DNA of 64,000 nt from positions 202,560 through 266,559 of the forward strand of contig WLXD01000005.1 in NCBI GenBank assembly GCA_012103255.1. Reading direction: 5' to 3'. The notes beneath the pieces were generated by a model. That model had not been told where the DNA came from and did not search any database. It saw only the letters and a program-made list of their open reading frames with translations. This document shows, one piece after another, positions 3,925 to 54,304 of the stretch. A program made the translations under genes and the position numbers. The DNA comes from Acidobacteriota bacterium. Lineage in GTDB: Bacteria; Acidobacteriota; UBA890; WLXD01. The first letter of the stretch is position 1. The number at the start of each line of letters is the position of its first letter.

Positions 3925-4011
3925 AAGAAGAGTCGGATCCGGGAAGCATCGTCATGGTGAAGCGAAAGTCAAGTGAGTCGCGTTTCAGGCGAGGCGTTGT
4001 ACCCTCGTCAC

Positions 4012-16829: not shown

Positions 16830-19175
16830 CTAGGTTCTGACGCCGATAGCCTGGTACGTCCCTAGAGATAGGAACAACAGGTGTGGCGCCCATGCCGACA
16901 GAGGCGGCGGCAGTTGGTTCGCGTAGCCGAGAGCCTGGAAGACGCCGAACGCGATCCAGTAGGCGGCTACGAGTGCGACTGCGACGGCCACGCCCGTAAG
17001 CGTGCCGTGGCGGCCCATTCGGAATGCGAATGGAAGGCCGACCACGGTCATGACAAACACGATGGCCGGCGTGGCGATCTTCTGATGAAAGTCGACCAGC
17101 GCTCGGTGGGTTTCGTAGCCCTGCCGCTCGAGCAATTGAATGTGTCGACGCAGATCGAGCAGGCGCATCTGTTCAGGTAGCAGCTCGTTCTCGCGGAAAT
17201 ATTCCGGGTCGCGTTCCAGGTGCCCCATGCGGGCGAAACTGAACTCCTCGAGCGGTGACGGCTTGACCCGGTCGCCTTCACGGACGAAGAAGCGTCGCCA
17301 GCCGTCGCGAGCCTCCCAGGTGCCCTCGCGCCACTCGGCGATATCAGCGAACTCCATCCGAGCCATCGAGTTCTCGTCGCCAAGATAGAAGACCCGCAGA
17401 CCCAGGAACTGCGAGCTCGACTCCACGAATTCGTCGAAGTGGTAGACCACGTTGCCCTCGGCGAACACCCAGTTCTGCGACTGCAGCAGAATGACTGTGT
17501 CCGACGGGTCCATTGCTTCCTCGACCACCTTGGCTTGCTCAGCCGTGTACGGCAGCACGTACTCCTGGAGGGCGTACTGCCCCGCGGTGAGCAGGAGTGC
17601 CGGGACAAAGATCGGGACCATCAGTCGATAGAGGCTCACCCCGCCTGCCATGGCGGCCACGACCTCGCCGTGCTTCGCCATGAGACTGAAGACGGCCAAC
17701 ACCGTAACGACCGCAGCCATCGGCGTGATGTCGAAGACGATCTCCCACACGTAGTAGCTCAAGAAGGTGGGGATCAAGCCGGGATTGGTTACGTAGGACG
17801 CCTTGTCGATCCAGGTGCCCATGATGAACAGAACGATGAAGGCCGAGAACGTGAGCCCGTAGATGCTCAAGTAGTTGCGCATCACGAGCCTGTCGAGCGT
17901 CCGCGGGAAGGACGCACCGGTGTGGCTGGAGCGGAGCCGCACGGAACGGTGCAGAACACGCTTCGAGTACCAAGCGCGCAGGCCGTCCGCTGCCTGGAGC
18001 CAGATGGGCTCGATACGCCGCCATATGCCGAAGTCGACTTCGCGACTCTTCTTCCAGAGCAGCACGAGGGCTGCGATGGCCAGCACGACGTTGCCAGCCC
18101 AGATTCCCACGATTGGTGAGATCTGCCCCAGATCAGCTTGTTGTTCGCCGTTCTGCGCGAAGAAGTAGTACACGGCGATCACCACGATGCCGATAGCGAA
18201 CCCGCTTGCCGTTGTCTGTCTCTGAGTTGAGATGCCCAGCGGAAGCGCGATGAGGCCCATCACGATGCAGGCGAAGGGAAGCGCAAACTTCTTCTGGACC
18301 TCGACCCGCAGATCCCACGCCGGCTCGCCATTCGAATGACGCGCCGCGATCGCTGTGCGTAGTTCCGAGAGGTTCATCGAGCGAACGTCCTTGCCGAGCT
18401 CTCCGATGAAGGTGTTCTCTTCAGACCACACGAGTTCGCTGCGCGACTCGAACTCGGTCAGTGTCACGTCCGCCGGGTCGGCTCGCGATGCAATGACGAC
18501 CCCGTTGACCATCTCGATGTATGTCCGACGGTTCTCGGCATCGATCCGGGGGTAGGCGCGCTCTGCGCGGAGAATCGTCGGCGGATTCGAGTCCGTTCGC
18601 GCCGTAAACACACCGCGCCACTCGCTACCTTGATTGACGATGTCCTCGACGTAGAGGACAAGGTTCGGGAAGTCGTTGTTGAAGACGCGAGGTTTGACCT
18701 CGTTGGACAGCGCTCCGCCCTCGGCGATCTGTTCCCACTGAATCTCCACGAGTGATTGATTGCCCCAAGGCATCATCACGGTGTAGATCCAGCTTGTCGC
18801 TCCCCACAGTAGAGCGGACGCGATGAGTACCGGCGGCAGTAGGTGAAGCAGGCTGACCCCCGCGGCGCGAAGCGCGACGATTTCGAAGTCCGCCGACATT
18901 CTGCCGAAGGCGATCAACGAACCGACGAGGAGCCCCATTGGGATGGTCAGAACCATGATGTGAGGCAGGCTGTAGACGATGACCCACAACACGCTACTGA
19001 GCTCGGCGCCGTACTCGATCCACAGCTGCGAGACGCGGAGTAGCGCGCGCATCAGAAAGAGGAACGTGAAGACACAGAACGCCAGCAGGGTGGGGGTCAG
19101 GAGTTCGAGGATCACGTGGCGCCACAGGATCAATGCGGGACGCGCTCTGAGGATGGACGCCGCGGCTGCGCTCAT
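16830..19175 (-). CDS. fused LptF-LptG-type LPS export permease (two YjgP/YjgQ domains in one polypeptide)
   Basis: The start is moved to ATG 19175 (MSAAAASILRARPALILWRHVILELL...). The first half carries a YjgP/YjgQ-like TM segment (RHVILELLTPTLLAFCVFTFLFLMRALLRVSQLW). The second half (RLVMRNYLSIYGLTFSAFIVLFIMGTWID...) repeats the same domain. The ATG overlaps the stop of the upstream GT2 gene (ATGA). Confidence 0.75.
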   Translation of the reverse strand: MSAAAASILRARPALILWRHVILELLTPTLLAFCVFTFLFLMRALLRVSQLWIEYGAELSSVLWVIVYSLPHIMVLTIPMGLLVGSLIAFGRMSADFEIVALRAAGVSLLHLLPPVLIASALLWGATSWIYTVMMPWGNQSLVEIQWEQIAEGGALSNEVKPRVFNNDFPNLVLYVEDIVNQGSEWRGVFTARTDSNPPTILRAERAYPRIDAENRRTYIEMVNGVVIASRADPADVTLTEFESRSELVWSEENTFIGELGKDVRSMNLSELRTAIAARHSNGEPAWDLRVEVQKKFALPFACIVMGLIALPLGISTQRQTTASGFAIGIVVIAVYYFFAQNGEQQADLGQISPIVGIWAGNVVLAIAALVLLWKKSREVDFGIWRRIEPIWLQAADGLRAWYSKRVLHRSVRLRSSHTGASFPRTLDRLVMRNYLSIYGLTFSAFIVLFIMGTWIDKASYVTNPGLIPTFLSYYVWEIVFDITPMAAVVTVLAVFSLMAKHGEVVAAMAGGVSLYRLMVPIFVPALLLTAGQYALQEYVLPYTAEQAKVVEEAMDPSDTVILLQSQNWVFAEGNVVYHFDEFVESSSQFLGLRVFYLGDENSMARMEFADIAEWREGTWEARDGWRRFFVREGDRVKPSPLEEFSFARMGHLERDPEYFRENELLPEQMRLLDLRRHIQLLERQGYETHRALVDFHQKIATPAIVFVMTVVGLPFAFRMGRHGTLTGVAVAVALVAAYWIAFGVFQALGYANQLPPPLSAWAPHLLFLSLGTYQAIGVRT

Positions 19176-19855
19176 CGGGATGCCTCGTAGAAGCGCGCGA
19201 GAGTTAGTGGGCTCATGCCGAGCGCGTGGGCCGCGCGCAGGAGCCACATCTTCAGGATGGTCCGGACCGGGCCACATTGCTCCCAGCGGCGAGCCGACGT
19301 GACGACGGTGTCGTTGAGCCGCGCGACCCTGCCGGTGCGTCGCAGTTGAGCGCTAAACTGGACGTCTTCGAAGAGCGGCAACGGCGGGAACCCGCCGAGG
19401 TGGTCGAAAACGTCTCGCCGGACGAACATGGCCTGATCGCCTGTCGCAATCCCGGTCAGCCGACTACGGATCGTGATCATGCGGCCGATAAGGCCGAGAA
19501 GAGGGCGAACCGAGTTGAGTCGCAGCCGAAAGAATCCGCCTGAGGCACCATCATCAATGGCGGCACGGATGCTCTTGAGAGCCCCTGCGGGCAGTTCGGT
19601 GTCGGCGTGAAGAAACAGAATGATCTCTCCGTCGCCCAAGGCGGCACCCGCGTTCATCTGACTGGCGCGGCCTCGAGGAGCTGCGGCGTAGGGGAGTCCT
19701 GAGCTGCGCAGGGCGCTAGCGGTTCCATCCGTGCTCATGCCGTCGACGATCACGACGTCGGTCGCGGCCGCGGCATGCATGTCACGGAGTCGATCGAGCA
19801 AGAGCGGCAGAGCGCTCGACTCGTTGTGTACGGGGACCACGACGTTTACGCGCAA
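19172..19855 (-). CDS. family-2 glycosyltransferase (GT-A fold)
   Basis: Only the C-terminal ~230 aa of the 540-aa ORF-track entry is protein-like: RVNVVVPVHNESSALPLLLDRL ... DVVIVDGMSTDGT ... ILFLHADTELP. The upstream part is antisense to rnz. The start is tentatively TTG 19855; an alternative is ATG 19969. The stop TGA overlaps the LptFG start. Confidence 0.6.
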   Translation of the reverse strand: MRVNVVVPVHNESSALPLLLDRLRDMHAAAATDVVIVDGMSTDGTASALRSSGLPYAAAPRGRASQMNAGAALGDGEIILFLHADTELPAGALKSIRAAIDDGASGGFFRLRLNSVRPLLGLIGRMITIRSRLTGIATGDQAMFVRRDVFDHLGGFPPLPLFEDVQFSAQLRRTGRVARLNDTVVTSARRWEQCGPVRTILKMWLLRAAHALGMSPLTLARFYEASR

Positions 19856-19978
19856 GACGATCCGCAGCGTTGGTGGAGGAATGTGCCGGATGCGGCACGC
19901 TGTGATTCTAGCAGTCACCGCTGGGGCAGTCCGTGACGACACGCCCGGATCGAGGGGGTGCGTTACCATCCGGCGATC

Positions 19979-20878
19979 ATGTTTCGGGCCGTAGTTCTGG
20001 GCAGCGGCGCTTCGCTGCCAACGCTCCAACGCCAGACTGCCGCTGTGGCGGTGCAGTATGAAGGCGACGTCTATCTGTTTGATTGCGGCGAAGGCACGCA
20101 GTTGCAGTGGCGTCGCGCCGCGCTGCGCTTTGGGCGACTGCGTGGGATCTTCATCTCGCATCTGCACGGCGACCACCTGAACGGTCTGGTAGGCCTTCTG
20201 CAGACGCTCTCGCTGGGCGATCGGGACGAGCCGCTTCGTCTTTTCGGGCCGCCCGGAATCGAGGCCTACTGGAAGGCGATCCAGCGCTATCAGGGCGTTC
20301 GACTCGGCTATCCTCTCGAGATTGTCGAGAGCGAAGGCGGGGTTCTCGTCGAAGGGCGCGGCCATGCGATCGAGTGCGCTCTGCTCGATCACGGCATACG
20401 GACGCTGGGCTTTCGACTGGCCGAGGACGAACGACCCGGGCGCTTCGACCCGGTCGAAGCCGAACGTCTCGGGGTGGCGCCGGGCCCGGACTTCGGGCGG
20501 CTTCAGAGCGGGGAGGCCGTTGACGGGACGTCCGGGACGGTCTTGCCGGAACAGGTGATGGGACCAGCCCGTCCGGGTCGGAGCGTCGCATACACCGCGG
20601 ATACCCGGGCTTGTCCGGCAGTTGTAAAACTGGCGCACCAGACGACGCTGTTCCTCTGTGACTCCACATTCGGTTCGGAGCTCGAACGCGAAGCCGCGGC
20701 GCGTGGGCATTGCACCGCCGCGCAGGCCGCTCGGATGGCTCATGAGGCCGGAGCGGAAAGGCTCGTCTTGACCCACATCTCTGCCCGCTACCACGACACG
20801 CGACCGCTGCGCGCCGAGGCCCGGGAGATCTTCAAGAACACCGAGGTCGCCAGAGACCTCATGGAGTACGGGCTATGA
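19979..20878 (+). CDS. rnz: ribonuclease Z
   Basis: MFRAVVLGSGASLPT ... FDCGEGTQ ... ISHLHGDHLNGLVGLL is the RNase Z (ElaC short form) signature. The ORF track starts at 19958, 7 codons upstream. Confidence 0.85.
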   Translation: MFRAVVLGSGASLPTLQRQTAAVAVQYEGDVYLFDCGEGTQLQWRRAALRFGRLRGIFISHLHGDHLNGLVGLLQTLSLGDRDEPLRLFGPPGIEAYWKAIQRYQGVRLGYPLEIVESEGGVLVEGRGHAIECALLDHGIRTLGFRLAEDERPGRFDPVEAERLGVAPGPDFGRLQSGEAVDGTSGTVLPEQVMGPARPGRSVAYTADTRACPAVVKLAHQTTLFLCDSTFGSELEREAAARGHCTAAQAARMAHEAGAERLVLTHISARYHDTRPLRAEAREIFKNTEVARDLMEYGL

Positions 20879-21384: not shown

Positions 21385-21506
21385 GCACCGGGGCGTTTGT
21401 GGCCCTCGGACACCCGAGCTAGACTCGAATAGATCGATTTTCTGCGCCCTGGCGCGTGCCTGCGCTGGCGCTGTTTTATTCCGTGGCTACTCCCAGGAGA
21501 GAAGGC

Positions 21507-22280
21507 GTGCGCATTGCCGTCTGCATGAAAGCCGTTGTCGACTCCCAGGCTCGCATCGAGCTCGATGGGGACGGCAACTTGCGTCAAGATCAGTTGCGCT
21601 TCGAGGTCAACGAATACGACCTCTACGCGGTCGAAGAAGCGATTCGACTCGCCGAGAGCGATGAAGGTCACGTCACGGTGATCTCGGCAGGGACTGCCGA
21701 CGCCGTCCAGGGACTCCGAAAGGGGCTTGCCATGGGAGCGGCCGACGCGATTCACGTCGATTGTGATCCCGACGACCTGGACGCCAGCGGCGTTGCCGCC
21801 GTGCTGGCGGCTGCGCTGCACGACGGCGGCTACGATCTCGTGCTCGCTGGGGTCGAGTCGGACGATCTCGGTGGCTCTCAGGTGGGCGTGCTGCTCGCCG
21901 AGGCCCTGGGGTACGCGTCGACGACACTCGTCGTAGGGACGAACGAGCCCGTTGATGGCGCGATGCAAGTTCGGCGCGAACTCGAGGGCGGCGAGCACGC
22001 GAACGTCCAGGTGCAGTTCCCAGCTGTGCTCACGATTCAGAGTGGTATCAACGAGCCGCGCTATCCGAGTCTCAAAGGGATCATGGCAGCGAAGCGCAAG
22101 GACCTGGCGGTGAAGGGCCTGGCCGATCTTGGCTTCGACGGAGCGCCGGCGCGCCGCGTCGAATCGCTCGGCCTCACCATCCCGCCGCCGCGTGAGCTTG
22201 CGCGGATGCTGGAGGGCGGTGCGGAAGAGACTGCCGCTGAACTTGTGCGGATCCTGCGCGAAGAGGAGAAGGCACTATGA
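21507..22280 (+). CDS. etfB: electron transfer flavoprotein beta subunit
   Basis: The start is re-assigned to GTG 21507, preceded by AGGAGA (21495-21500). VRIAVCMKAVVDSQARIEL ... matches the EtfB/FixA N-terminus (MKIxVCxKxVPD). Confidence 0.85.
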   Translation: MRIAVCMKAVVDSQARIELDGDGNLRQDQLRFEVNEYDLYAVEEAIRLAESDEGHVTVISAGTADAVQGLRKGLAMGAADAIHVDCDPDDLDASGVAAVLAAALHDGGYDLVLAGVESDDLGGSQVGVLLAEALGYASTTLVVGTNEPVDGAMQVRRELEGGEHANVQVQFPAVLTIQSGINEPRYPSLKGIMAAKRKDLAVKGLADLGFDGAPARRVESLGLTIPPPRELARMLEGGAEETAAELVRILREEEKAL

Positions 22281-23227
22281 GCCGTTCGATCTGGATCGTT
22301 GCTGAGCATCAGGACGACAACCTCCATACCGGCGCCGCCGAACTGGCCGGCGCCGCCCGGAGTGTGGGCGATCATGTAGCCGCCGTCGTCTGCTGCGAAG
22401 CTGGCAGCACGGTGCCGGCACAAGCCGCACCCTTCGTCGATCAGGTGCTTGTGATAGAGAATGCCGCGCTCAGCGGCTACACCGCAGGGCTCTGGGCACA
22501 GGGAATTGTCGGTCTTGCCAAGGAGAGCGCACCGGCCGCGATCCTGTTGCCGCATGCTCCGCTTGGGCGCGACCTCGCTCCATTGCTAGCGGCGCGGCTC
22601 GATGCAGGCCTGCTGACTGATTGCCTGGAGTTGCAGTGGGAGGAGGGGCTCGTTGGCCTGCGTTCGGTGCATCGGCGCAAGCTAGTGTCCCGCGAGCGGG
22701 TTGCAACACCGATCGCAATCGCGACCTGCCAGCGGGGCGCGTTCGCCGCATCTCCAGCCGGTGATGCAGCGGCAATCGAGACCGCGTCGGTTGCGATTGA
22801 TGACACCGCGGCCCGCACGCGGCTCCTGTCCATGGAGCGCGCCGAGGTCGGAGAGGGAAGTATCACCGAAGCCGAAATCGTCGTCGCTGGCGGACGTGGC
22901 TTGGGCGATGCGGAGAAGTTCGCCCTGGTGCAGGAACTCGCCGACGCCGTGGGTGGCGTGATGGGCGCCAGTCGACCTGTGGTGGACCAAGGCTGGGTGC
23001 CGCACGATCGGCAGATCGGCTCCTCAGGCGTCACCGTGCGCCCGCGACTGTACTTCGCACTCGGCATTTCCGGCGCTGTGCAACACGTTGTCGGGATGCG
23101 CGAGAGTGATGTGATCGTAGCGATCAACAAGGATCCCAAGGCGCCGATCTTCGAATACGCGCACTATGGAATCGCGGACGACGTGTTTAAGGTTGTCCCG
23201 GCGGTGATCGCGAATCTGAACAGCTAG
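22277..23227 (+). CDS. etfA: electron transfer flavoprotein alpha subunit
   Basis: IWIVAEHQDDNL ... and the C-terminal FAD-binding region (...SRPVVDQGWVPHDRQIGSSGVTVRPRLYFALGISGAVQHVVGM...) match EtfA. The start overlaps the etfB stop. Confidence 0.85.
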   Translation: MSRSIWIVAEHQDDNLHTGAAELAGAARSVGDHVAAVVCCEAGSTVPAQAAPFVDQVLVIENAALSGYTAGLWAQGIVGLAKESAPAAILLPHAPLGRDLAPLLAARLDAGLLTDCLELQWEEGLVGLRSVHRRKLVSRERVATPIAIATCQRGAFAASPAGDAAAIETASVAIDDTAARTRLLSMERAEVGEGSITEAEIVVAGGRGLGDAEKFALVQELADAVGGVMGASRPVVDQGWVPHDRQIGSSGVTVRPRLYFALGISGAVQHVVGMRESDVIVAINKDPKAPIFEYAHYGIADDVFKVVPAVIANLNS

Positions 23228-23278: not shown

Positions 23279-23791
23279 CTAGTCGCAGAGAAGCGAGTCT
23301 AGCCAGTGTGCCAGGGCGCGTTCATCAGCCAGACCGACCACGCTATCTGGCCGCTTCGGGTCGAGGGTCATTCCCGCGATCTTCTCGCCCCAGCCTCCGG
23401 CGGGGAGGTACGCGGCGAGGCGCCGTCCCTCCTGCCAACTGTGTGCGATCTCGCTCAAAGTGCCGGCACCGCCGCCGACGGCGACGACCGCGTCAGCCGA
23501 GAGTACGATCGGCAGGTTGCGGGCGTGCCCGATTCCCGTGGCGATTACGACCTCGGCCCAGGCGTTCGCGGACGAGGTGTCAGTGCCTGGAAGGATGGCC
23601 ACCGTACGCGGCGTCGGCCCGGACGGCGCGTTGACCGCGCCCCGGCACGCTGCGGACATCACACCGCCCAGTCCGCCACAGACACCTGCGAAACCAGCGA
23701 CGGCGATCGCGGCGCCAACATCCTCCGCGTGCGCGGTGAGGGCGTCGTCGGCAGCTCCACTGCCAATGACGGCGATCATACGTCGTCGCAT
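23279..23791 (-). CDS. TIGR00725/SLOG-superfamily (LOG/DprA-like Rossmann) protein
   Basis: IAVIGSGAADD ... AGFAGVCGGLGGVMSAACRGA ... TVAILPG ... VVAVGGGAGTLSEIAHSW is the TIGR00725/LOG-like pattern. The start ATG overlaps the ligase stop (TGATG). Confidence 0.7.
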   Translation of the reverse strand: MRRRMIAVIGSGAADDALTAHAEDVGAAIAVAGFAGVCGGLGGVMSAACRGAVNAPSGPTPRTVAILPGTDTSSANAWAEVVIATGIGHARNLPIVLSADAVVAVGGGAGTLSEIAHSWQEGRRLAAYLPAGGWGEKIAGMTLDPKRPDSVVGLADERALAHWLDSLLCD

Positions 23792-25423
23792 CAGGGAGCC
23801 TCGCCCCCGGGTGTGCGCGCGCGGCGGTACAGCCGGTCGAGGTCAGCAACGGTACTGATGTCGTCGATCTCGAGGTCCTGCCGCCAGCGGACAATGCGTG
23901 GAAACCGAAGGGCGAAGCCTGCGGGATGGCGCCGACTTATTTGCACATCGTCGAACGCGACCTCGAGAACGATGTCGGGGTGTACCCGGCGCACCGACCC
24001 TGTGGTGCGCTAGCGTGTTGTCCTTGAAATGGTCGGTTAGCTCGCGGATCTGCTGATCCGTCAGGCCGCTGTAGGCACGCCCGGCGTCGATCAACTCGCC
24101 CTCCTGCCGTACTGCGAAGATCAGGTCCGAGAGCATCCCGGCGCGCTTGCCTCGGCCCCACTCCGCGCCCGTGACGACTACATCCAGAGTTCCGAGTGGC
24201 CGCTTGAGTTTCACCCACGCCCGCCCACGCCGACCAGGTTGGTAGGTGCTCCCGGGAAGTTTGAACACAGAGCCCTCATCACCGGCACCTGTCGCCGCCT
24301 CGAATGCCTCGGTAACACTCTGGCGGCCCTCGATCTCTTCCCACGGCGCCCGGCGGACGGGCCCGTCATAGGGAAGCACGCCCGAGAAATTCCTTGCGTT
24401 GCGTGAGCGGTTGGTCGATCAGGTCTTCGCCGTCGGCTCGAAGGGCGTCGAAGGCCAGGAACACGACGGGAGCATCGAGGAGCAGCGTGAGTGGCACCTC
24501 CTTACGTCCGAGGCGCCTCTGCAGCGTGCCGAAGGAAAGCGCTTGTCCCTCGTACCAGGCAACAACCTCGCCGTCGAGGATCCACTCGCCGGACATTCCT
24601 GGTGGCGTCATTCGGACCTCGGGGAAGAAGTGTGTGAAGTCCTCGAGCGCTCGGGAGTAGACGCGGACCACACCATCGCGAAGGTGCCACTGAGCCCGAA
24701 TGCCATCGTATTTGTGTTCGGCGACAATCGGGCCCTGCAGGAGTTGGCACACCTCTTCAGCCGATGTGGCTGGATTGGCGAGCATGACGTGAATGGGTCG
24801 ATGTGCTCGAAGTGTGATGTCACGGAGTGCGTTCGTGGCGGCACGCTCTGCAGTTGTGCCGATGTCACCGAGGAGCATGTGAGCTCGGCGAATGTCGTCG
24901 AGCGGCCTCGCAAACGCCATCGCGAGCGCCTCTTCCACGCGCGCGGCCTGCATGCCGGTTCGCAGCGATCCGAGGAGGAGCTTGGTGAGATACTTGGCCT
25001 CCATGGGGGTGGCCCGCTGGTACAGACCGCGCAGGCGTCGTCCGCGGTGCATGCGGGCCAAGCTCGCCGAGCTCTGCGAGCGACACAGCGACCTCGTCCA
25101 GGCGTAGCTGTTCTACCTCCGGCCGTTCGATGCCGGCCAGAATTTCTGCCACGGCGACGCCCAGGTCGCCGCGCGTGGTTGCCTTGCGCAGCAATGTTGT
25201 GCGCTCCGCGCCACTGAACGCCGCGACGATATCGACGACCGTAGGACCGTCCGACTTTCGTCGCCGGCGTACCGCGGGGCAGGGGAGTGCCGGCAAGGAA
25301 ACGAGCCGCGACCGCCACGGTTCCCTGCGGCTGGCTGGCCAGGTAGGCAGCTGCTGCCTGCACCTTGTTTTCGGTGCTCGTGTGGCCCGCAATCGTCTCG
25401 AACGTGAGAGCAAGAGCTCGCAT
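23791..25423 (-). pseudogene. ATP-dependent DNA ligase (LigB-type, ~540 aa) broken into at least five reading-frame segments
   Basis: The ligase-like segments lie in different frames. In order along the minus strand they are:
- N-terminal DNA-binding-domain-like MRALALTFETIAGHTSTENKVQAAAAYL... (frame of ORF 24608..25579).
- ...PTVVDIVAAFSGAERTTLL... (frame of ORF 24865..25413).
- The adenylation domain with the KxDGxR motif EHKYDGIRAQ, plus YLTKLLLGSLRTG (ORF 24366..25061).
- The OB domain with RAWVKLK and LDVVVTGAEWGRGKRAG (ORF 23843..24379).
- The C-terminal FALRFPRIVRWR (ORF 23791..23994). Confidence 0.7.
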
Positions 25424-25482
25424 GTCGCCGGACTCTAGCGGCCGTGTCGGATGGGTGCAAACACGGCCGGAAGACGTGGGGC

Positions 25483-26877
25483 CTAGAGGCCGCCGCCGGC
25501 GATTGCTGCCGCGCGCGTGGCCCGGCCATCCTGCAGGCGCTGCATGGCGTCGTCGCGCTGCGCAACGAAGCGGCCCCAATGTTCGCTGGGAACAGGATCC
25601 GCCGCGGGGAATTGCAGTCGAAGCGGGTCAACGTAGTTGCCGCCCTGGAGCAATCCATAGTGCAGGTGATAGCCCGTGGCGTTGCCGGTCTTCCCGACGT
25701 AACCCAGTACCTGCCCCTGCCTGACTTCAGATCCCGGACTCACGCCGTCGGCAATCCGCGACAGGTGCATGTAGATCGACGAGTACGACCCACCGTGACG
25801 CAGCTTCACATAGCGTCCTGGCTCGGCGCCGTAGCGTGCCTCGAGTACCACGCCGTCCGCGGTCGCCTGGACGGGCGTCCCGGGGTCCGCGGCATAGTCG
25901 ACGCCACGATGTGCGCGGGCCACGCCGGTGACCGGGTGGACTCGGCGGTTTGAGAACCGCGAAGAGATTCGCGAGTACTTCACTGGCGATCGGAGAAAAG
26001 CTCGCCTGAGCGACTCTCCATCGGGCGTGAAGTAGCTCCCGATGCCGTCCGGATCGCGGAACCGGACGACCGGCAGTGTACGGCCGTTGACCTGAAACTC
26101 CGCCGCAAGGATTTCGCCGTAGCCGATGAACTTGCCTTCGACGTAGCGTTCTTCGACCACGAGATCGAGCCGGTCGCCGTAGCGCAGGTCGTACTGGAAG
26201 TCGACGTCCCAGCCGTAAATGTCACCGATCTTGGCCACGAGATCGGCCACCGCCGCATTGGACGGCGCGAACTGAGCAAGAGACCGGTGCAGACTGTCGG
26301 CGATTTCCGCCGAAACATAGCTCGCCCTTGATTCGATCGGAATCGCGACCTGGGTGGCGACCCATTCGGCATCGCGACGCGCTACGAACCAGGCGGTCTG
26401 ACGCTCGAACTGGTAACGGAACCCGATCAACTGCTTGGCCGCGTCGAAGTAGAGCTGGTACTCCTGGCCGGGCCGGATGCGCCGAACATTGATGGACTCG
26501 GTCACCACGTCCAGCAGGTTGCCCAGATCGGACCCGGAAACGCCGGCGCCTCGGAGAATCCCGTCGAGTGTGCTCCTGGACCTGAAGCGCGCGCTGACGG
26601 CTCGGTCGGCGTCTACGGCAATGGACTGCGGCCACGGTAGCGGTAGATCTGGCGTGGCCATCACCGTGCCTTGTACGGCGAGCGTCGGTTGCGTGGCCTG
26701 CGTGAATCCAACGGACGGAAGATAGGGGACCGCGAGCAGGAGTCCCCAGATCGCGAGAAGCCCACCCAGAACCGCGCGCGGGTAGGGGATCGGCAGCACG
26801 CCGTCCTCGGGGACGTAGCGCAGGCGCAACCTGAAGCTGCGCGGCGATTGCACTGTGAGGCGGAGTTTGAGACTCAA
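25483..26877 (-). CDS. M23 family metallo-endopeptidase (LytM/NlpD-like) with an N-terminal TM helix
   Basis: The C-terminal HRGVDYAA ... GRYVKLRHGGSYSSIYMHLS ... GNATGYHLHY carries the HxxxD and HxH zinc motifs of M23 peptidases. Confidence 0.85.
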   Translation of the reverse strand: MSLKLRLTVQSPRSFRLRLRYVPEDGVLPIPYPRAVLGGLLAIWGLLLAVPYLPSVGFTQATQPTLAVQGTVMATPDLPLPWPQSIAVDADRAVSARFRSRSTLDGILRGAGVSGSDLGNLLDVVTESINVRRIRPGQEYQLYFDAAKQLIGFRYQFERQTAWFVARRDAEWVATQVAIPIESRASYVSAEIADSLHRSLAQFAPSNAAVADLVAKIGDIYGWDVDFQYDLRYGDRLDLVVEERYVEGKFIGYGEILAAEFQVNGRTLPVVRFRDPDGIGSYFTPDGESLRRAFLRSPVKYSRISSRFSNRRVHPVTGVARAHRGVDYAADPGTPVQATADGVVLEARYGAEPGRYVKLRHGGSYSSIYMHLSRIADGVSPGSEVRQGQVLGYVGKTGNATGYHLHYGLLQGGNYVDPLRLQFPAADPVPSEHWGRFVAQRDDAMQRLQDGRATRAAAIAGGGL

Positions 26878-27124
26878 GGCGCCGTTAGAAAGCTGGGCCC
26901 GCGGGGGCGGATTCAGGGTCCTCGGAACTCCGACCTGAGGGCGATCGAAGCGTCCCGGAAGAGCCGCGCCATTATATGGGTTAGAGGGCGGGTCGCCAAA
27001 CCCGCGTTTGACGGGTCATGACCTCGGGAGGGTGGGGATTGCGCCGGTTGGGCCGTACTTGTTTCAATGAAGCGGACTTGCGGCCGTGAATCACAATTCG
27101 GCCGCCAACTGAGCAGGAGCAGGA

Positions 27125-28341
27125 ATGACGACGGGTAGGGGTGTGATCGTGTCAGTCGTGGCATCCGTGATGGCGATCCACGCGCCAGCGGCAGTGCCTT
27201 CCATCGGAGGCTCGGTTACCGCGCAGGAGAGCACGGCGTTCGAGGAAATCATGCCCCTCGACGATTTCTCGCCCGCGATTCTCGGCATTTTCCGCAAGCT
27301 GATGCTTATCGAAGAGGATATCGAGCGCTACGCCTCGCGCTATCAGGTCGATTTCGACCTGGCCCGAGCGACCTGCATGTACGAGTCGGGCGGGAATGCG
27401 AATCTGACCTCCTGGGCTGGTGCGAAAGGCTACTTCCAGGTGATGCCGGCCACGTTCCGAGGCCTCAATGTCGATACCAACATCGAGGCGGGCATTAAGT
27501 ACATCGGCCAGCTCATCCGGCAATTCGAGCGCGAGGACTACGCGCTTGCGGCCTACAACGGTGGCCCAGGCAACGTCGGACGCGGCCGTGCGATGCGCCT
27601 CGAGTCGCTGCAGTACGTACTGGGCGTGGGCTACTACCGAACGATGTTGAAGTTGCACGGGCCATCGATCCGGCACCACGCCTCAGGTCTCGAGCTCACG
27701 GAGGTGCGTGACGGCGAGGAATGGTGGGATATCGCGGAGCGACTGAATATCTCGCTGCTCCAACTGCGCCTCCACAATCCGTACCTGGCCGTGCGTCGAC
27801 CGAAAGCGGGCCAGTTCATCGCGTATCCGCCGGTGCCGCGCGACAACCTGTTCGAGCCTCAGGGTGACCACTTGGAGTATCGGTCGCGGCTGGGCGACAA
27901 CTACTTCAACGTTGCTTTCACGCTCGATGTCGAACTGGACGACCTGCGTGCGGAGAACGAACTCTGGCACCTGCAGACACTGCCGACCGGTATGTTGCTG
28001 CGGATCCCGTTGACGTGGGAGGACGATCACAGCGTCCATCGGGTGCGACCTGGCGATACGGTGGCTGCGGTCGCCGAGGAATTCGAATCAACGCCATGGC
28101 GAATCTTGCGCGACAACGGACTGCTGTGGGACTCGACGCTGGATGAAGGCATGATGCTGCGGGTGCGCGAGGTCCCGAAGCCGCCGCAGTTCGTGACGCA
28201 CCGCGTTCGCAGCGGCGAGAACCTGTCGCGAATCACTACGGCACGACGATCGCCACGATCCAGGCAGCCAACGGCATGGGCCGCCGCACCGTGATCCGAA
28301 TCGGTGAAAGTCTGCGCATTCCGGCCGCAGCCGAGGAATGA
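27125..28341 (+). CDS. membrane-bound lytic murein transglycosylase with LysM repeats (MltD-like); C-terminal frameshift
   Basis: The SLT domain is MYESGGNANLTSWAGAKGYFQVMPATF. It is followed by LysM-like repeats (HRVRPGDTVAAVAEEFEST..., HRVRSGENLSRI...). The last LysM continues in the +2 frame (NHYGTTIATIQAANGMGRRTVIRIGESLRIPAAAEE*), ending at 28341. The frameshift is near 28236 and is consistent with loss of one copy of a GCGAATC direct repeat. Confidence 0.8.
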
Positions 28342-34311: not shown

Positions 34312-35161
34312 ATGCGCTTCGGGTCCTACACCGTTCGGGCCTTGCTGGACTCGCGGTTTGCCCTCGATGGGGGCTCGATGTTCGGCGTGGTTCCGCGCGC
34401 GCTCTGGCAGAAAGTGGTTGAGCCGGACTCTCAAAACCGTATCCCGCTCGTGTCACGTCTCCTGTATGTCGAGGGCGAGGGACGTCGCATCCTCGTGGAC
34501 ACAGGACTGGGTGACAAGTGGGACGACAAGCGTCGGGCGATGTTCGCGATCGACCTTGTCGAGGGCGGCGCAGCGGCGCAGCTCCGCAACTTTGGCGTGG
34601 AGCCTGACGACATCACGGACGTGGTTCTAACCCACCTTGCACTTCGATCACGCCGCCGGGACCACGTTCACGGATGCTGATGGCGAGCTGGCCCTGCGCT
34701 ACCCGAATGCGGTGCACCATGTGCAGTCCGCGCATTGGGACTGGGCGTGGAGTCCGACTCTGAAAGACGCGGGATCCTTCCGGCGTGAGGACTTCGGCAA
34801 GCTAGCCAGCAGTCCCAAGCTATGCCTCGTTGATGGCGAAGTCGAAATTGCGCCGAGCATCAAAGTGTTCCCGCTGGATGGTCATACCCGCGCGATGCAG
34901 GCAGTTCGCATCGGATCTCCGGGTGCCGATCTGCTCTTCACCGCGGATTTGGTGCCAACGGCCGCCCATCTGCGCTGGCCATACATCATGGGGTTCGATA
35001 ACGAGCCGCTCACTACCCTGGCGGAGAAGCAGCATTGGCTGAGCCAGGCGGCGCTTGGCGGTACCGTCCTCGTGTTCGAACACGACCCCGTGATCGCGGC
35101 AGCTCGGCTCGTCGAGAACGATCGTGGCGGCGTGCAGGTCGGCGAACAGGTGAGCCTGTAG
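34312..35161 (+). CDS. MBL-fold metallo-hydrolase (AHL-lactonase-like); single-nucleotide frameshift at ~34639
   Basis: ORF 34312..34680 ends ...DVVLTHLALRSRR. ORF 34637..35161 begins MHFDHAAGTT. Removing one G at ~34639 restores ...VVLTHLHFDHAAG... (the HxHxDH motif). Confidence 0.7.
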
Positions 35162-36864: not shown

Positions 36865-38955
36865 TCAATCGAAGTAGGAGTCGTCGTCCCACACCGGGTC
36901 TACGTTGGGGTCCCAGTCGGCATTGTTCCGCGGCGCGGGCGCGGGTCGCGACTCCTGACTCGCTGGTGCCTCGAAAACTTCCCAAGGTTCGATGAGCTGG
37001 CGAGGCAATTCCTGAAGAAATCGTGACGGCTGCTGCAGCAACGCGCCACCCGACCCGCCGGGCCGGACGATGGGATAGCTCAAGTAGAGCTCTTCGCGGG
37101 CACGAGTGGTGCCGACGTAGAAGATGCGACGCTCCTCTTCCTCGCCGTCCGGCTCCCCAAGAGCGCGAGGACTGGGCAGCGCGCCCTCAACGAGATGAAC
37201 GAAGAAGACAACCTTCCACTCCAAGCCCTTCGATTGGTGAACTGTTGAGAGCACCAACGGCCTCTCATCGGAGTCCCCTCCCCCCTTCACGTCTTGCCCG
37301 TACATTTCGCCGAGCAGCACCACCTCTTCGAGGAACCCCGCCAGTGTGTCGTATTGGGAGGCAAAAATTGCGAGCTGTTCGAGATCCTCGAGTCGCGAGT
37401 CGAAGTTGGTGAACTGCGCTCGAGCGAAATCCGCGTAGACCTCGAGTACCGCATTGATCGCCGCTTCGGGCGCGTCACGACACTCCACCACGGTTGCCAG
37501 GAGGCTCGTGAAGGCCGACCACCCGGCTCGCGCGCGGGTTGGTACGCCGGCCAGGACTTCCGAGGAAGCCAGCGCGTCCACAAATAGATCTGCCTCATCG
37601 TGACGCGTCAGCAGATCCCACAGGCGATCTGCAGTGACGTTCCCGATGCCCTGCTGCAACAACAAAGCGCGTCGGAAGGCCACCTCGTCGCGTGGGTTCA
37701 GCGCGAGTCGAAGATGCGCCGTGACGTCCTTGACGTGAGCTTGTTCGAAAAACCGCACTCCACCGCGGACGTCATACGGGATGTCCGCTCGCAGAAGGGC
37801 AGTTTCCACCGTGAGCCGATGTGAGTGCGCGCGATACAAGATCGCGATCTCGTGGAACGGAACGCCCTCGTCCCGCAGCTGCAGGGCGCGTTCCACAACG
37901 AAGCTCGCTTCCTGATCGGGATAGTTGCATGGCACCAGCGCGGGCAGCATCCCTGATTCGCGTCGCGAGAAGAGTTCCTTCGCATACTGGTTCACGTTGG
38001 CGGCGATGCTGGCGTTCGTCAGCGCGAGAATCTCGGGGGTCGACCGATAGTTCTCTTCGAGCTTGAACACTTCGGTGCCGGGATTGCGGTCCGGGAACTG
38101 CAGGATGTTGTCGTAGTGCGCTCCCAGGAACGCATAGATGCTCTGACAGTCATCGCCCACAACTGTCAGATTGCCGCCATTAGCCGACGCGAGCGTCTCT
38201 ACGATTTCGCCTTGCACCATGTTGGTGTCCTGATACTCGTCGACCAGGATGTAGCGGAATCGCTGTCCATAGCGCTGCAGGAGCTCGGGCTCGTTACGAA
38301 GGAGCTTGAGCCAGAGCGTAAGCAGGTCGTCATAGTCCATCGCATTGGCGTTTCGCTTCCGCTCTGCGTAGCGACCCGCGATGGCCACGACTTCCTCCTC
38401 CCACTCAGCGAACTGCGGATAGCGATCCACGAGCAGGTCCTCGAGTGGCGCCCGAGTGTTCGTATGCAGCGAGATCAGGCCGCCCAAAACCTTCGGTGTC
38501 GGAAAACGGCGACGCTCGGCTTTCACCCCCACGTCGGTGACGCAGAGTTTCAACAGATCTCGCTGATCCGAATCGTCGAGAATCGAGAACGTCTCGCTAA
38601 ATCCCAGGGCGGTGCCGTGCCGGCGTAGAAAGCGCGCGCCGACGGAGTGGAAGGTGCCGCCCCACAACCGTGCTGTGTCGACGTGGGTCAGTTCGCGAAC
38701 TCGCTCGACCATTTCCCGTGCGGCCTTGTTGGTGAAGGTCACCAACAAGATGTTGTCCATGGCAACGCCTTGCGACAGCAGCCACGCCACGCGATATGTG
38801 AGCGTGCGTGTCTTACCGGTCCCGGCTCCCGCAATAACGAGCTTCGGGCCCTCGCCGGCTGTCACGGCCAAGCGCTGCGCCTCGTTGAGGTCGGCGCCGA
38901 AATCTACTGCAGGAAGCTGACTAGGGCGTCGCTGTAGGACGAAACGTCGGGCCAT
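36865..38955 (-). CDS. UvrD/PcrA/Rep-family ATP-dependent DNA helicase (SF1)
   Basis: LNEAQRLAV... is followed by Walker A GAGTGKTRTL. The protein is 696 aa. Confidence 0.9.
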   Translation of the reverse strand: MARRFVLQRRPSQLPAVDFGADLNEAQRLAVTAGEGPKLVIAGAGTGKTRTLTYRVAWLLSQGVAMDNILLVTFTNKAAREMVERVRELTHVDTARLWGGTFHSVGARFLRRHGTALGFSETFSILDDSDQRDLLKLCVTDVGVKAERRRFPTPKVLGGLISLHTNTRAPLEDLLVDRYPQFAEWEEEVVAIAGRYAERKRNANAMDYDDLLTLWLKLLRNEPELLQRYGQRFRYILVDEYQDTNMVQGEIVETLASANGGNLTVVGDDCQSIYAFLGAHYDNILQFPDRNPGTEVFKLEENYRSTPEILALTNASIAANVNQYAKELFSRRESGMLPALVPCNYPDQEASFVVERALQLRDEGVPFHEIAILYRAHSHRLTVETALLRADIPYDVRGGVRFFEQAHVKDVTAHLRLALNPRDEVAFRRALLLQQGIGNVTADRLWDLLTRHDEADLFVDALASSEVLAGVPTRARAGWSAFTSLLATVVECRDAPEAAINAVLEVYADFARAQFTNFDSRLEDLEQLAIFASQYDTLAGFLEEVVLLGEMYGQDVKGGGDSDERPLVLSTVHQSKGLEWKVVFFVHLVEGALPSPRALGEPDGEEEERRIFYVGTTRAREELYLSYPIVRPGGSGGALLQQPSRFLQELPRQLIEPWEVFEAPASQESRPAPAPRNNADWDPNVDPVWDDDSYFD

Positions 38956-40700
38956 CTACGGAAGTGCGCTCGGCACGGCGAGATCCGACAGCGCCCAGGC
39001 TTGCCCGCCCGCACGGAGCCACCGCACGAGGTCGAAGCGCGCAGCCAACTGGTCGAGCGGTTCGGCGCTCGTCGAGGCTTCTATCTTCGCCTGGCTGGCG
39101 AACATGACTCCACGGAGCTGCTCGAAGAGTCCGGGTTGCTGGGGGTAGACAACTATGGCCGTGTCCGTGCCGGGGGCGAGGTCAGCTTCTCGCCGAGCTA
39201 CGCTCAGGGCAGCACGCAGCCCGCCGATCTCGTCGATAAGGCCCCGCTCGAGGGCCTGACGCCCCGTCCAGACGCGTCCCGAGGCCAACGCCTCCACGTC
39301 CCTGAGTTCCATTCCACGAGCCTCTGCGACCTTCTCAAGGAACGCGGCGTAGGTCGTATCGACCGAATTCTGGAGTCGCTGTCGCTGCTCGTCGGTGAGC
39401 GGTCGGGATTCATCGAAAATATCTGCGTTGCGGCCGCGCTTCACAGCCGAGTTTCCGACACCGAGTTTCTCGTAGGTCTCAGCTACATTGAAACGTCCCA
39501 TCACGACACCGATCGAGCCGGTGTACGTTCCCGGCATGGCGAGGATTCGGGGGTGCCGGCCATGGCGATCCAGTAGCCTCCCGATGCCGCGACGTCGGAC
39601 ATGCTGATGATCACAGGTAGTTCGGCGGCGGTTCGCTCGACCTCGCGCCAGATCACATCAGAGCCAGTCACGGCCCCTCCCGGGCTATCAACCCGGACCA
39701 CCACAGCACGCACGTTGCTGTTGCTTCGGGCTGCGCGGAGGGCAGCGGCAATACGATCGCCGCCGGCTAGTGTCCCTGACCCGAGGAATCCGGGCGCCGG
39801 GTTGCCCGGGACGATCATGCCGTCGACGTGCACGAGAGCGATGGCTGGCCGTCCGAGAGCCCACGTAGAGCTGCTTGCTGCGTTGTAGGTGCGGACACTG
39901 ACACGTTGCCCGGCCCCCACCAGGTCGTCTACCGCATCGTCGAATCCGAGGACGTCGACCAACTCGAGTTCCGCCGCCTCGGCAGCGGAGAGGAGCCCAA
40001 GGTCGATGGCGTGGCGGACAGCATCCGGCTCGAGACCGCGATCTTCCGCGATGCCGGAAACGAGCTGCTCGTAAAGGTCGTCCAGGAGAACTTCGATCGC
40101 CTCTCGTTCCTCTTCGCTCATCTCCGAGGCGGTGTAGGCAGACATGGCCGTCTTGTACGGGCCGGTGTGGAACGCCTCGAACTCAACTCCAACCGTGTCG
40201 AAGAGTTCCCGGTAATACTGGCGTCGACTGGAGAGGCCGAGGAGGTAGTTGCCCGAAGGAATCTGGACGATCGTGTCTGCCGCGGAGGCCACATATAGAT
40301 CGAGTAGTGACCCGATCTCGAGACGTGCGACGACTGGCTTCCCGGACTCGCGGAACGCGTGAACCGCGGAGCGGATCTCTTGGGCCTTGCCGAACCCGGA
40401 GAGCAGCGGCCCGATTCGAAGCACCACCCCGCTGATCCGGCTGTCATCTGCTGCGCGCCGAAGCGCAGAGTCGATCTCGCGGAGCGACAGAGCCCCTACC
40501 GGGTCGTCGCCGAAGACACGGCCAGGTTGTTCGACCACAGGACCTGACAGCGAGACAGTCAGGACGTTCTCGCCGGCAAGCGAAACCGATTCGCCAAGTA
40601 GTGCATCGACGAAACTGGTCGTGACCCAGAAGGCCATGATCATCACGCCGAAAATAAAGATCAGCCAGATCCACGGTCGTCGACGTGCCCGTTCGCTCAT
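38956..40700 (-). CDS. sppA: signal peptide peptidase SppA (S49, two-domain 67K type); frameshift at a G5 homopolymer
   Basis: There is an N-terminal TM. The S49 motifs are ...DVAASGGYWIAMAG... and ...MPGTYTGSIGVV.... The frameshift is at the GGGGG run at 39549-39553. Confidence 0.8.
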
Positions 40701-42789: not shown

Positions 42790-42800
42790 TGGATTGGCTC

Positions 42801-43625
42801 CTAGAACAGCACCAGCGATCTGGGTGTTACGCGCGTGGTGAGTTGAATGGTGGGCAGGCCGTCTCCGGCAAGGCGAGGGCCCTCAGTGCGGACATCCAAG
42901 CGGGCTTCGATGACCCGGATGAGCAACTGCTGAGCCGTACCGGTTGGGCTGAACTGCGCGGGCGGGACGGCGTTGTCGAAGAACGTGAAGCTCACTTGCG
43001 TCAGGTTTCTGGCGACGACTGCGCCGCTCCCTCCGTCGACTTCGCGGATCAAGTCGAAGATGCCGCCGCCCGCATCCTGCGCGCGGTACGAAACCGTCTG
43101 CACCACGGCCGCCGCCGCGCCATCATCCGGTGAATAGAGCTTGCTGAGTCCCGCGTGGGAGATCGTGTCCGGCCCGGTAGTGAGACCGGTGATCTGGACC
43201 ATGTCGATACTGCCGGTGGCGTCGTAGACCGCGATGAACTGCCCAATCGCGAACTGCGCGGCGTCGTCGACCACTAGCGCATCGGTCGTGCTGGCCATGG
43301 CGGTTGTCACGAACGTGGTGACTTGCCCACGATTTACGCGCATGTCGATGCCACCGTCGACGCGCGGCACGATAATCGGGAAGGGAGGTTGGAGGCGCGA
43401 GAGTCCGACTCCTGCCACCTGCAGGTCGCGCTGTACCTGTTCGAGCGCGATCCGCGCTGTCTGCTGGGCGTCGATCTTCGCTGCCGCATCTTCATAGTTG
43501 TCGCGAGTTGTTCCGAACAGCGTCGACACCCCGCCCAAGAGCATCAAGAACAGGGCGCTAGCGATCATCGCCTCGATGAGACTGAAACCTGCTTCGCTCG
43601 GGCGATGGTTAACGGAGATCTGCAC
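42801..43625 (-). CDS. type IV minor (pseudo)pilin, PilW-like
   Basis: The prepilin-peptidase motif G|FSLIEAMIASALFLMLLGG is present. The start is tentatively GTG 43625 (leader MQISVNHRPSEAG); the ORF track starts at 43688. Confidence 0.6.
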   Translation of the reverse strand: MQISVNHRPSEAGFSLIEAMIASALFLMLLGGVSTLFGTTRDNYEDAAAKIDAQQTARIALEQVQRDLQVAGVGLSRLQPPFPIIVPRVDGGIDMRVNRGQVTTFVTTAMASTTDALVVDDAAQFAIGQFIAVYDATGSIDMVQITGLTTGPDTISHAGLSKLYSPDDGAAAAVVQTVSYRAQDAGGGIFDLIREVDGGSGAVVARNLTQVSFTFFDNAVPPAQFSPTGTAQQLLIRVIEARLDVRTEGPRLAGDGLPTIQLTTRVTPRSLVLF

Positions 43626-44049: not shown

Positions 44050-44100
44050 GTCGTTACTCCCGGCGGTTGACCCGAGGTTTCGGGCGCAGCCTGACTGAAC

Positions 44101-44127
44101 CTAGTGCAGGCACATGGGGTGCACTAG
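44101..44127. promoter_or_regulatory. 8-bp perfect inverted repeat CTAGTGCA-N11-TGCACTAG in the divergent pilin / O-antigen-ligase promoter region
   Basis: ctagtgcaggcacatggggtgcactag lies ~55 nt upstream of the PilV-like start (minus strand). It is divergent from the O-antigen-ligase-family gene. Confidence 0.3.
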
Positions 44128-54300: not shown

Positions 54301-54304
54301 GGTT

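Follow-up and report, generated by a model that had tools for sequence, protein, structure and literature searches.

Introduction

Essential nick sealing in bacteria is carried out by the NAD-dependent ligase LigA. The ATP-dependent ligases closest to the locus described here are the three-domain enzymes of archaeal/eukaryotic type, which include those of Archaeoglobus fulgidus (3GDE) and Pyrococcus furiosus (2CFM), the bacterial LigB-like proteins and members of TIGR00574 (dnl1). Bacterial pseudogenes usually decay in a substitution-rich, deletion-biased manner, and under a typical bacterial mutation spectrum four or five indels would be expected to come with tens of substitutions.

Here we analyse a ligase gene that is very probably a genuine, fixed, multi-hit pseudogene of the three-domain Lig1/archaeal type. 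Once four extra bases are removed, it has the same succession of DNA-binding (DBD), adenylation and OB domains and the same motifs I to VI as the enzymes above, and its product matches 3gde_A over residues 54-532 (E = 7.9e-76).

Data and methods

The window, i.e., the whole 64-kb stretch of DNA that was analysed, comes from an uncultured acidobacterium (Acidobacteria Subgroup 26, GTDB class UBA890) that lives as a symbiont in the sponge Mycale hentscheli. The matching metagenome-assembled genome (MAG), SAMN12903702, is an Illumina-only SPAdes bin, and the symbiont genome, at 4.8 Mb, is not reduced. Independent data came from Logan single-run assemblies of M. hentscheli metagenomes, which were made with an assembler different from the original one; the SRR100902xx/3xx runs are Illumina PE250/PE150, from different sponge specimens. 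Orthologs from eight related Acidobacteriota were used for frameshift-aware protein-to-DNA alignment. Because a GC3-filtered ORF map had little resolving power at 63% GC, segments were mapped by codon log-likelihood instead. A literature search recovered the source study, but no text dealing with the symbiont MAG or with pseudogenes.

A ligase gene spread over five reading frames

The ligase gene and its segments are the following.

23791..25423, minus strand: very probable pseudogene of an ATP-dependent DNA ligase, Lig1/archaeal type (DBD + adenylation + OB), ~542 codons plus four extra bases
25244..25423, minus strand: segment A, codons 1-60 in frame -1 from the native ATG (25423-25421), 83-87% identity to orthologs
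25057..25242, minus strand: segment B, codons ~61-122, frame -2, variable part of the DNA-binding domain
24382..25054, minus strand: segment C, codons ~123-346, frame -3, the last part of the DBD plus motifs I-IIIa of the adenylation domain, KYDGIR included
24011..24380, minus strand: segment D, codons ~347-470, frame -1, motifs IV and V plus the N-terminal half of the OB domain
23791..24009, minus strand: segment E, codons ~471-542, frame -2, motif VI (RFPRIVRWR) and stop TGA at 23793-23791

An earlier sequence-only reading had proposed that a ligase lies here in five successive minus-strand frames, with its motifs intact and in order and without stops inside the segments. Open reading frames, Pfam profiles, tblastn and ortholog alignment all agree with this description. 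Using intact 543-aa homologs as queries, tblastn returned five collinear HSPs in frames -1, -2, -3, -1 and -2 covering residues 1-542, and the codon log-likelihood map recovered the same five segments. Pfam searches found ligase similarity in the out-of-frame segments as well: DNA_ligase_A_N, A_M and A_C are spread over three frames with consecutive profile coordinates across the splits (A_M 2-143 then 152-204; A_C 1-55 then 63-93). No stop codon interrupts the correct frames, and motifs I, III, IIIa, IV, V and VI can all be read in the translations (EHKYDGIRAQ, ILDGEVVAW, VVFLAFDAL, DEGSVFK, AWVKLK and LRFPRIVRWRQD, respectively), motif I retaining as KYDGIR the KxDGxR signature with the adenylated lysine.

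When the four bases are removed, the stitched 542-aa product has the N-M-C domain order (PF04675 + PF01068 + PF04679) with each domain present end to end and above its Pfam gathering score (A_N 2-167, 60.4 bits; A_M 213-406, 134.3 bits; A_C 426-515, 52.2 bits). It also scores above the TIGR00574 cut-off (251.6; cut-off 217.8) and reaches none of the equivalog cut-offs of PRK03180, PRK09247, TIGR04120 (cisplatin-damage-response ligase) or LigD/NHEJ. As it stands in the window, no single continuous ORF holds all the domains, which lie in five frames separated by four 1-nt insertions. Gene callers start segment C at an internal ATG (25052) and report a 228-aa fragment.

Orthologs and insertion sites

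An intact ligase ortholog, encoded by one uninterrupted ORF of 540-543 aa, was found in all eight syntenic Acidobacteriota relatives (L001, JAJCXT010000073; L002, JAJCXS010000128; L003-L008; proteins P0001-P0009). These MAG orthologs are 54-72% identical to the window ligase over the full length and share the gene order GH113, SLT/LysM, M23, ligase, EtfA, EtfB, GT2, LptFG; they differ from it in that none carries any of the shifts. No full-length ligase above 72% identity was found in the protein database, and all matches in a scan of GTDB genomes were at or below 71%.

Frameshift-aware alignment with the eight orthologs placed four 1-nt insertions at ~25243, 25056-62, 24377-83 and 24001-10. 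These sites, along with a fifth known from a variant haplotype, are listed below.

25243..25246, minus strand: J1, extra base, TCC[T]ACG, where orthologs read ..VGRS|T..
25055..25057, minus strand: J2, C run lengthened by one, GGC[C]CGC, CC to CCC
24381..24383, minus strand: J3, extra G, GG[G]C, GG to GGG, polymorphic and missing in haplotype H2
24010..24011, minus strand: J4, extra base, CTA[G]CGC (CT[A/G]CGC), outside a homopolymer
24287..24287, minus strand: J3' site, T to TT in haplotype H2, ACAGGT[T]GCC, not in the window (haplotype H1)

The junction ranges of the sequence-only reading were right for J1 and J3 and held J2 at their low edge, but were slightly off for J4 (24010-11 rather than 23995-24005). 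Identical-base runs at the insertion sites are at most 3 nt, so none is a long homopolymer, and a by-eye check for restriction-site or palindrome patterns at these sites revealed nothing consistent.

All five ligase events (J1-J4 and J3') are +1 insertions. Of the positions that are invariant in the relatives, 9 of 237 are changed in the window's ligase, versus 47 of 1100 in seven neighbouring genes (Fisher p = 0.86). There is thus no excess of amino-acid substitutions in the ligase, and its decay is unusually indel-dominated. The usual deletion bias would not lead one to expect decay by insertions only. The intact catalytic motifs, the lack of a substitution excess and the uniform +1 direction are also features that speak against a pseudogene.

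Other disrupted genes in the window

Three other genes of the window, encoding an SLT/LysM protein, an MBL-fold protein and SppA, bear reproducible frame-disrupting indels; that of the MBL-fold pseudogene is a +1, and the others include a -1 and a -7. These genes fit relaxed selection in the symbiont. The sequence-only reading had held that the indel rate in the ligase is far above that of the rest of the window, which is true in degree, although the rest is not clean. Four of the seven frame-disrupting indels in the 64 kb fall inside the 1.63-kb ligase gene, a non-random clustering (binomial estimate ~1.5e-5 given a gene of the ligase's length, uncorrected for ~50 genes).

The codon log-likelihood map also flagged other candidate frame switches. 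Those at FixC/FixX (54294-54299; stop then ATG), at 46262 (stop, then GTG) and at 58002 are ordinary gene boundaries, as are those at ribH/nusB/leuS, LptFG/GT2, the pseudopilin genes, ParA/ParB and MiaB, and the one at 53000 is an antisense shadow of FixC.

Recurrence of the frameshifts and a second haplotype

The window is 100.000% identical to contigs of the Logan assemblies SRR10090329, SRR10090292 and SRR10987117 over 20.5, 11.3, 4.75 and 20.4 kb. Among 22 contigs bearing the neighbouring SLOG gene, 19 carry the exact 228-aa frameshift fragment and 16 the exact 178-aa fragment. A second haplotype, H2 (L010/L021, SRR10090328; one specimen), was seen on three contigs; it lacks J3 and has instead the +1 insertion J3', 95 nt downstream. 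J3 is therefore a true G insertion, and indels are still accumulating. Outside J3/J3', H1 and H2 differ by one synonymous SNP in 17.7 kb, and J1, J2 and J4 are common to all sampled sponges. Exact-pattern searches of JGI metagenome contigs for an intact or ancestral same-strain allele, one spanning J3-J3' with optional bases and one covering the motif I region, retrieved none. A 696-aa UvrD-like ORF that was also looked up was found on one short contig only, probably owing to another choice of start by the gene callers.

Neighbouring genes

The features flanking the ligase on the same strand are as follows.

23279..23791, minus strand: SLOG cluster-4 (TIGR00725-like) gene, intact, 170 aa, ATG overlapping the ligase stop (TGATG)
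25483..26877, minus strand: M23 (MepM/ShyA-like) peptidoglycan endopeptidase gene, intact, separated from the downstream ligase ATG by 59 nt
26971..26999, minus strand: sigma-70-like promoter match (10/12) upstream of the M23 gene, by consensus match only

As first described, the ligase stop (23793-23791) and the SLOG start (23791-23789) overlap in TGATG and the M23-ligase spacer is short. The SLOG protein scores above the gathering score of PF18306 (108.8; threshold 26.3) but just below the TIGR00725 cut-off (100.1; cut-off 106.9). The M23 protein matches PF01551 (103.5; threshold 28.7), with its zinc ligands HxxxD and HxH read as AHRGVD and HLH, and reaches none of the ShyC, ShyA or MepM equivalog cut-offs.

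The M23-ligase adjacency is kept in all eight relatives. Coupling of the ligase to the SLOG gene, in contrast, is not conserved: a SLOG gene directly follows the ligase in one relative (L002), lies 1.9 kb away in another (L008) and was not found within 10 kb in the remaining six (L001 and L003-L007). The adjacency in the symbiont should not be taken for a functional module. A single promoter-like site precedes the M23 gene and no terminator-like site was seen on this strand; the M23-ligase-SLOG genes may form a single transcription unit, a reading compatible with the data. The SLOG gene, which is preceded by a G-rich SD-like stretch, would now rely on its own ribosome binding, since no ribosome starting at the ligase ATG would reach the overlapping stop in frame.

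Discussion

The sequence-only reading had left a choice between a recently inactivated pseudogene and a sequencing-error hotspot; the recurrence of the same frameshifts in independent single-run assemblies from different specimens supports the former and refutes the latter. Four independent single-base insertions, each shifting the frame by +1, disrupt the gene. Since the first follows codon 60, a ribosome starting at the native ATG is predicted to leave the ligase frame once 60 residues have been made and to read out-of-frame sequence from there on, and full-length ligase would be impossible. The loss of function is thus inferred from the sequence. It would postdate the split of this lineage from its nearest sampled relatives, which retain an intact ortholog at the same position, and would predate the diversification of the present symbiont population, as J1, J2 and J4 are present in every sponge sampled. 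Decay is ongoing, two sub-lineages differing in the +1 insertion that separates segments C and D. The inactivation may be called recent in a relative sense, as sites invariant in the relatives show no excess of substitutions. LigA is presumably encoded elsewhere in the symbiont genome.

It is possible, if rather unlikely, that the remnant decays non-neutrally, lineages from different sponge individuals having independently gained different +1 insertions. The repeated hits would then reflect either selected knock-out of a harmful truncated ligase started at the internal ATG or a locus-specific or genome-wide +1-insertion mutator, i.e., a strongly +1-biased, indel-dominated spectrum contrary to bacterial deletion bias. 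Two near-identical lineages do carry different +1 insertions within 95 nt in the adenylation domain, against that single synonymous SNP; in addition, the ligase events are all insertions without a substitution excess and the MBL-fold pseudogene likewise has a +1. However, these counts are tiny (two indels versus one SNP), the window also holds a -1 and a -7, and neither toxicity nor a mutator genotype has direct evidence. Moreover, indels are tolerated only in already-neutral DNA, and their location in the ligase is therefore expected.

That the gene remains functional through recoding, by programmed +1 ribosomal frameshifting, suppressor-tRNA quadruplet decoding or transcript editing at each site, is very improbable. 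Every ligase shift goes in the same +1 direction, the segments contain no stop codon, have lost no motif and show no excess substitutions, and glycine GGN codons occur at three of six +1 sites (J2, J3 and J3'). Yet the site contexts (TCCT, GGCC, GGGC, GGTT, CTAG) are heterogeneous and share no slippery or quadruplet motif, and recoding of this kind is rejected for that reason. The shifts come with neither an in-frame stop nor a homopolymer tract, none of the eight orthologs carries them, a near-identical strain swaps one site for another 95 nt away, the other disrupted genes include -1 and -7 events and there is no tRNA gene in the window.

We give hardly any credence to the idea that a hotspot of local errors in sequencing or assembly hides one 542-aa ORF. 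The four indels do lie within 1.25 kb, metagenome-assembled sequences are prone to artefacts and a related long-read MAG (L005) has a split SLT/LysM gene; against this, the identical sequence was assembled independently, by a different assembler, from no fewer than three runs and specimens, and even the variant haplotype recurs on three contigs. No site lies in a long homopolymer, and Illumina data such as these rarely show single-base insertions elsewhere than in homopolymers. Equally implausible is a split but functional ligase whose fragments are translated separately and reassemble: gene callers do give 228-aa and 178-aa ORFs with adenylation and OB-domain pieces, but the breaks interrupt each of the three domains (DBD, adenylation and OB), segments A/B and E lack called genes of their own and evident start codons, the split point shifts between haplotypes and no relative has a split gene.

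For annotation, a fixed pseudogene means that the frameshifts of this sponge-symbiont MAG should be kept rather than repaired as assembly errors. A host-associated acidobacterium would have lost an accessory ATP-dependent ligase, and this, together with no fewer than three further disrupted genes in 64 kb of an unreduced genome, would be a sign of relaxed selection. Although the finding is that of an ordinary pseudogene, its small oddity, substitution-poor decay by insertions only, offers together with the two frameshift haplotypes a modest, testable way into the mutation spectrum and population structure of a symbiont that has not been cultured.

Unlike the archaeal/eukaryotic-type ligases, the symbiont gene is broken by four +1 insertions and therefore cannot encode such an enzyme. 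With programmed +1 frameshifting of the prfB type and the poly(A) transcriptional-slippage rescue of endosymbionts, it shares a +1 frame move after which coding sense goes on, but it has no conserved shift site, in-frame stop, rare codon or long homopolymer, and a single gene contains four distinct shift sites, not one of which is kept in orthologs. The multi-frameshift pseudogenes of host-associated bacteria also resemble it: an accessory gene is hit early and then gathers more indels, other disrupted genes lie close by, and the lesions are fixed across hosts while polymorphism continues. The symbiont ligase differs from these in having single-base insertions only, with no measurable substitution excess, and in residing in a genome of 4.8 Mb.

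Structure of the interrupted ligase gene

On the minus strand of the window, ligase similarity is spread over five successive reading frames between a peptidase gene and an SLOG gene. The features and the four insertions (J1-J4; inserted base in brackets) are as follows.

25483-26877, minus: M23 peptidase ORF (ORF listing, Pfam)
within 23279-26877, minus: five overlapping ORF pieces with ligase similarity, beside the M23 and SLOG ORFs
25243-46, minus: J1, TCC[T]ACG (ortholog codons)
25055-57, minus: J2, GGC[C]CGC (ortholog codons)
24381-83, minus: J3, GG[G]C (ortholog codons)
24010-11, minus: J4, CTA[G]CGC (ortholog codons)
23279-23791, minus: SLOG ORF, 170 aa (ORF listing, Pfam)

The Pfam domains DNA_ligase_A_N, A_M and A_C fall on three of the pieces, out-of-frame segments included, with consecutive profile coordinates; A_M is divided between two successive frames (profile positions 2-143, then 152-204), and A_C is split as 1-55 and 63-93. 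Searched by tblastn with five uninterrupted ligases, the window returned five collinear HSPs in frames -1, -2, -3, -1 and -2, and every shift is therefore in the same direction. Frameshift-aware protein-to-DNA alignment with eight orthologs called for four one-base insertions, no more and no fewer, and was otherwise nearly free of gaps. The five-frame split proposed by the sequence-only reading is confirmed. The insertion sites were placed by local comparison with ortholog codons, and local inspection of all four found no long homopolymer. A codon-usage log-likelihood map trained on the other genes of the window gave five abutting coding segments with the same boundaries as the ligase pieces.

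Removal of the four bases yields a 542-aa product that covers each of the three Pfam domains along its whole length, scores above the TIGR00574 cut-off, retains ligase motifs I-VI intact and aligns to archaeal three-domain ligases (best 3gde_A, E = 7.9e-76). A search with the stitched translation brings up thousands of ATP-dependent ligases, headed by uninterrupted proteins of 535-545 aa from Acidobacteriota metagenomes (63-72% identity, 98-100% query coverage).

The frameshifts are real mutations

An exact-protein look-up found the SLOG protein on 22 contigs of independent single-run assemblies. Four loci from these assemblies matched the window as follows.

L009, SRR10090329: 20.5 kb, 100.000% identity; covers all four junctions
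L011, SRR10090292: 11.3 kb, 100.000% identity; covers all four junctions
L012, SRR10987117: 4.75 kb, 100.000% identity; covers J2-J4
L014, SRR10090329: 20.4 kb, 100.000% identity; reaches only to J3

Two frameshift products were found again in identical form, the 228-aa one on 19 contigs and the 178-aa one on 16. Runs SRR100902xx/3xx belong to the work of Storey et al. 2020 (PMC7157528) on metagenomes of the sponge Mycale hentscheli; according to its Data Set S1, SRR10090292 is the Illumina PE250 library of specimen MH-PAT, and two further specimens gave the Illumina PE150 libraries SRR10090329 and SRR10090328. The window is also 100% identical to contig SRR10090329_3238 (245.8 kb) of an M. 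hentscheli metagenome, and probably belongs to MAG 18 of that study, a member of Acidobacteria Subgroup 26 (GTDB class UBA890; 4.81 Mb, 9 contigs, 64.3% GC; Data Set S2). Since the frameshifts occur in short-read data from different sponge individuals and persist with a different assembler, they are real mutations; of the two explanations first offered, pseudogene or local error hotspot, the former was right and the latter is refuted.

A second haplotype was found on 3 of about 22 contigs (SRR10090328 and two similar contigs), differing from the window haplotype at only three positions across 17.7 kb. It lacks the extra G of J3 (CTCGGCGTG), which restores the ortholog-like reading LGVLPYDGP and confirms the reconstruction of J3. 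It carries instead an extra T 95 nt downstream (J3'; ACAGGT[T]GCC, after window 24287), with stop codons directly behind it. The third difference, a synonymous C/T change at window 17699, is the sole strain SNP in this interval. J1, J2 and J4 are therefore older and common to both haplotypes; J3 and J3' arose later, and each haplotype carries only one of them, which shows that the ligase remnant is still gaining frameshifts.

Genomic context in related Acidobacteriota

In a scan of species-representative genomes, eight loci from Acidobacteriota MAGs were recovered, all sharing the gene order GH113-like, SLT/LysM, M23, ligase, EtfA, EtfB, GT2, LptFG. In all eight the ligase is a single ORF of 540-543 aa adjacent to M23. 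The SLOG gene directly follows the ligase in one locus only (L002), lies 1.9 kb downstream in another (L008) and is absent from the other six. The coupling to the ligase described earlier is an adjacency particular to a lineage and does not amount to a conserved module. The SLOG protein clearly belongs to PF18306; its TIGR00725 score (100.1) falls just under the cut-off of 106.9. The overlap of ligase stop and SLOG start in TGATG is present as described, and M23 does end just upstream of the ligase (59-nt spacer after its stop). One sigma-70-like consensus match lies upstream of M23, and no terminator-like site was found between the three genes on their strand; their co-transcription is possible.

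Other features of the neighbourhood were recorded. EtfB/EtfA (21456-23227, plus) adjoin the ligase locus; 30 kb away, at 53005-54616 (plus), lie genes for a FixC-like ETF-quinone oxidoreductase and a small FixX-like ferredoxin (Fer4_ETF_QO), whose boundary was rejected as a frameshift, being a stop followed by ATG. The GT2 ORF upstream of LptFG (19172-20872, minus) aligns with its counterparts in relatives as two blocks (residues 3-298 and about 332-566), which adjoin each other in L003 and L008 and are separated by about 2.8 kb in L001 (12212-16632); this region is variable or mosaic. LptF and LptG are apparently fused in a 781-aa ORF (16839-19184, minus) with two PF03739 stretches, as in most relatives; the L008 match is broken into pieces. 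Three pseudopilin-like genes (N-terminal methylation or PilX-like motifs) adjoin a Wzy_C O-antigen-ligase-like gene (41026-45656), and the window also contains genes for LexA (3307-3951), a UvrD-like helicase (36865-38955) and an HNH endonuclease (56141-56728).

Other disrupted genes in the window

Pfam split domains, ortholog tblastn and motif inspection revealed three further reproducible disruptions in the rest of the window.

34312-35161, plus: MBL-fold hydrolase gene, +1 insertion in the HxHxDH zinc motif at 34637-34639 (CACCT[T/G]CAC; THL, then HFDH)
38956-40700, minus: SppA (two-domain peptidase S49), -1 mid-gene in a C5 run at 39549-39553 (AMAGTP, then RILAMPGTYTGSIGV)
27125-28341, plus: SLT/LysM lytic transglycosylase gene, 7-nt deletion at about 28234-28237 relative to L001/L002

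The 122-aa MBL-fold fragment is present on all 22 contigs examined, and the SppA split into 399-aa and 193-aa ORFs recurs in the SRR10090329 assembly. The 7-nt loss turns IARRYG into ATC AC TAC and shifts the frame, truncating or replacing the last LysM domain, while the true C-terminus runs on in another frame to 28338; this sequence is identical in all independent assemblies. The remaining ORF pairs that had looked suspect turned out to be ordinary boundaries between genes. In one related MAG, L005 (contig_20, 7130-8232), the SLT/LysM ortholog gives two tblastn pieces overlapping at residues 278-280, suggesting a frameshift there, which may be either an error of long-read sequencing or a further disruption of independent origin.

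Of the roughly 50-55 genes, four are disrupted. The sequence-only reading placed the ligase frameshift rate far above that elsewhere; four of the seven indels do fall in the ligase, but three other genes are also hit, and a gene that has already died would be expected to collect indels in this way.

Age and mode of decay

The window ligase differs at 9/237 sites invariant among the eight relatives, compared with 47/1100 for seven flanking intact genes (Fisher p = 0.86), and its per-segment identities follow those between relatives; thus there is no measurable amino-acid-level relaxation. As had been proposed, inactivation is recent when set against the divergence of roughly 30% from the closest relatives. 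The inactivated ligase is nonetheless fixed across the sampled sponges.

All five ligase events (J1-J4, J3') are +1 insertions, and the two haplotypes differ within the gene by two indels and zero substitutions; the decay is therefore indel-dominated and insertion-only, albeit on small numbers. A mutator or +1-biased mutation spectrum is one possible explanation, and parallel selection against a truncated ligase started internally at ATG 25052 is another. The gene is unlikely to be read through recoding, whether by programmed +1 frameshifting, quadruplet decoding or slippage: the shift sites share no motif, lack in-frame stops and homopolymers and occur in no ortholog, one of them moves between haplotypes, the indels of the other disrupted genes include a -1 and a -7, and no tRNA gene is present in the window. 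It is likewise unlikely that the gene works as a split ligase, as the breaks lie inside domains and for two of the segments no ORF was called.

The locus adds one more case to the multi-frameshift pseudogenes of host-associated bacteria, here in a known enzyme family. In bacteria, indels are usually about ten times rarer than substitutions and are mostly deletions. The ligase departs from this pattern, and that is its one unusual aspect: it has decayed by insertions alone, with few substitutions, and exists as two frameshift haplotypes among the sponge individuals.
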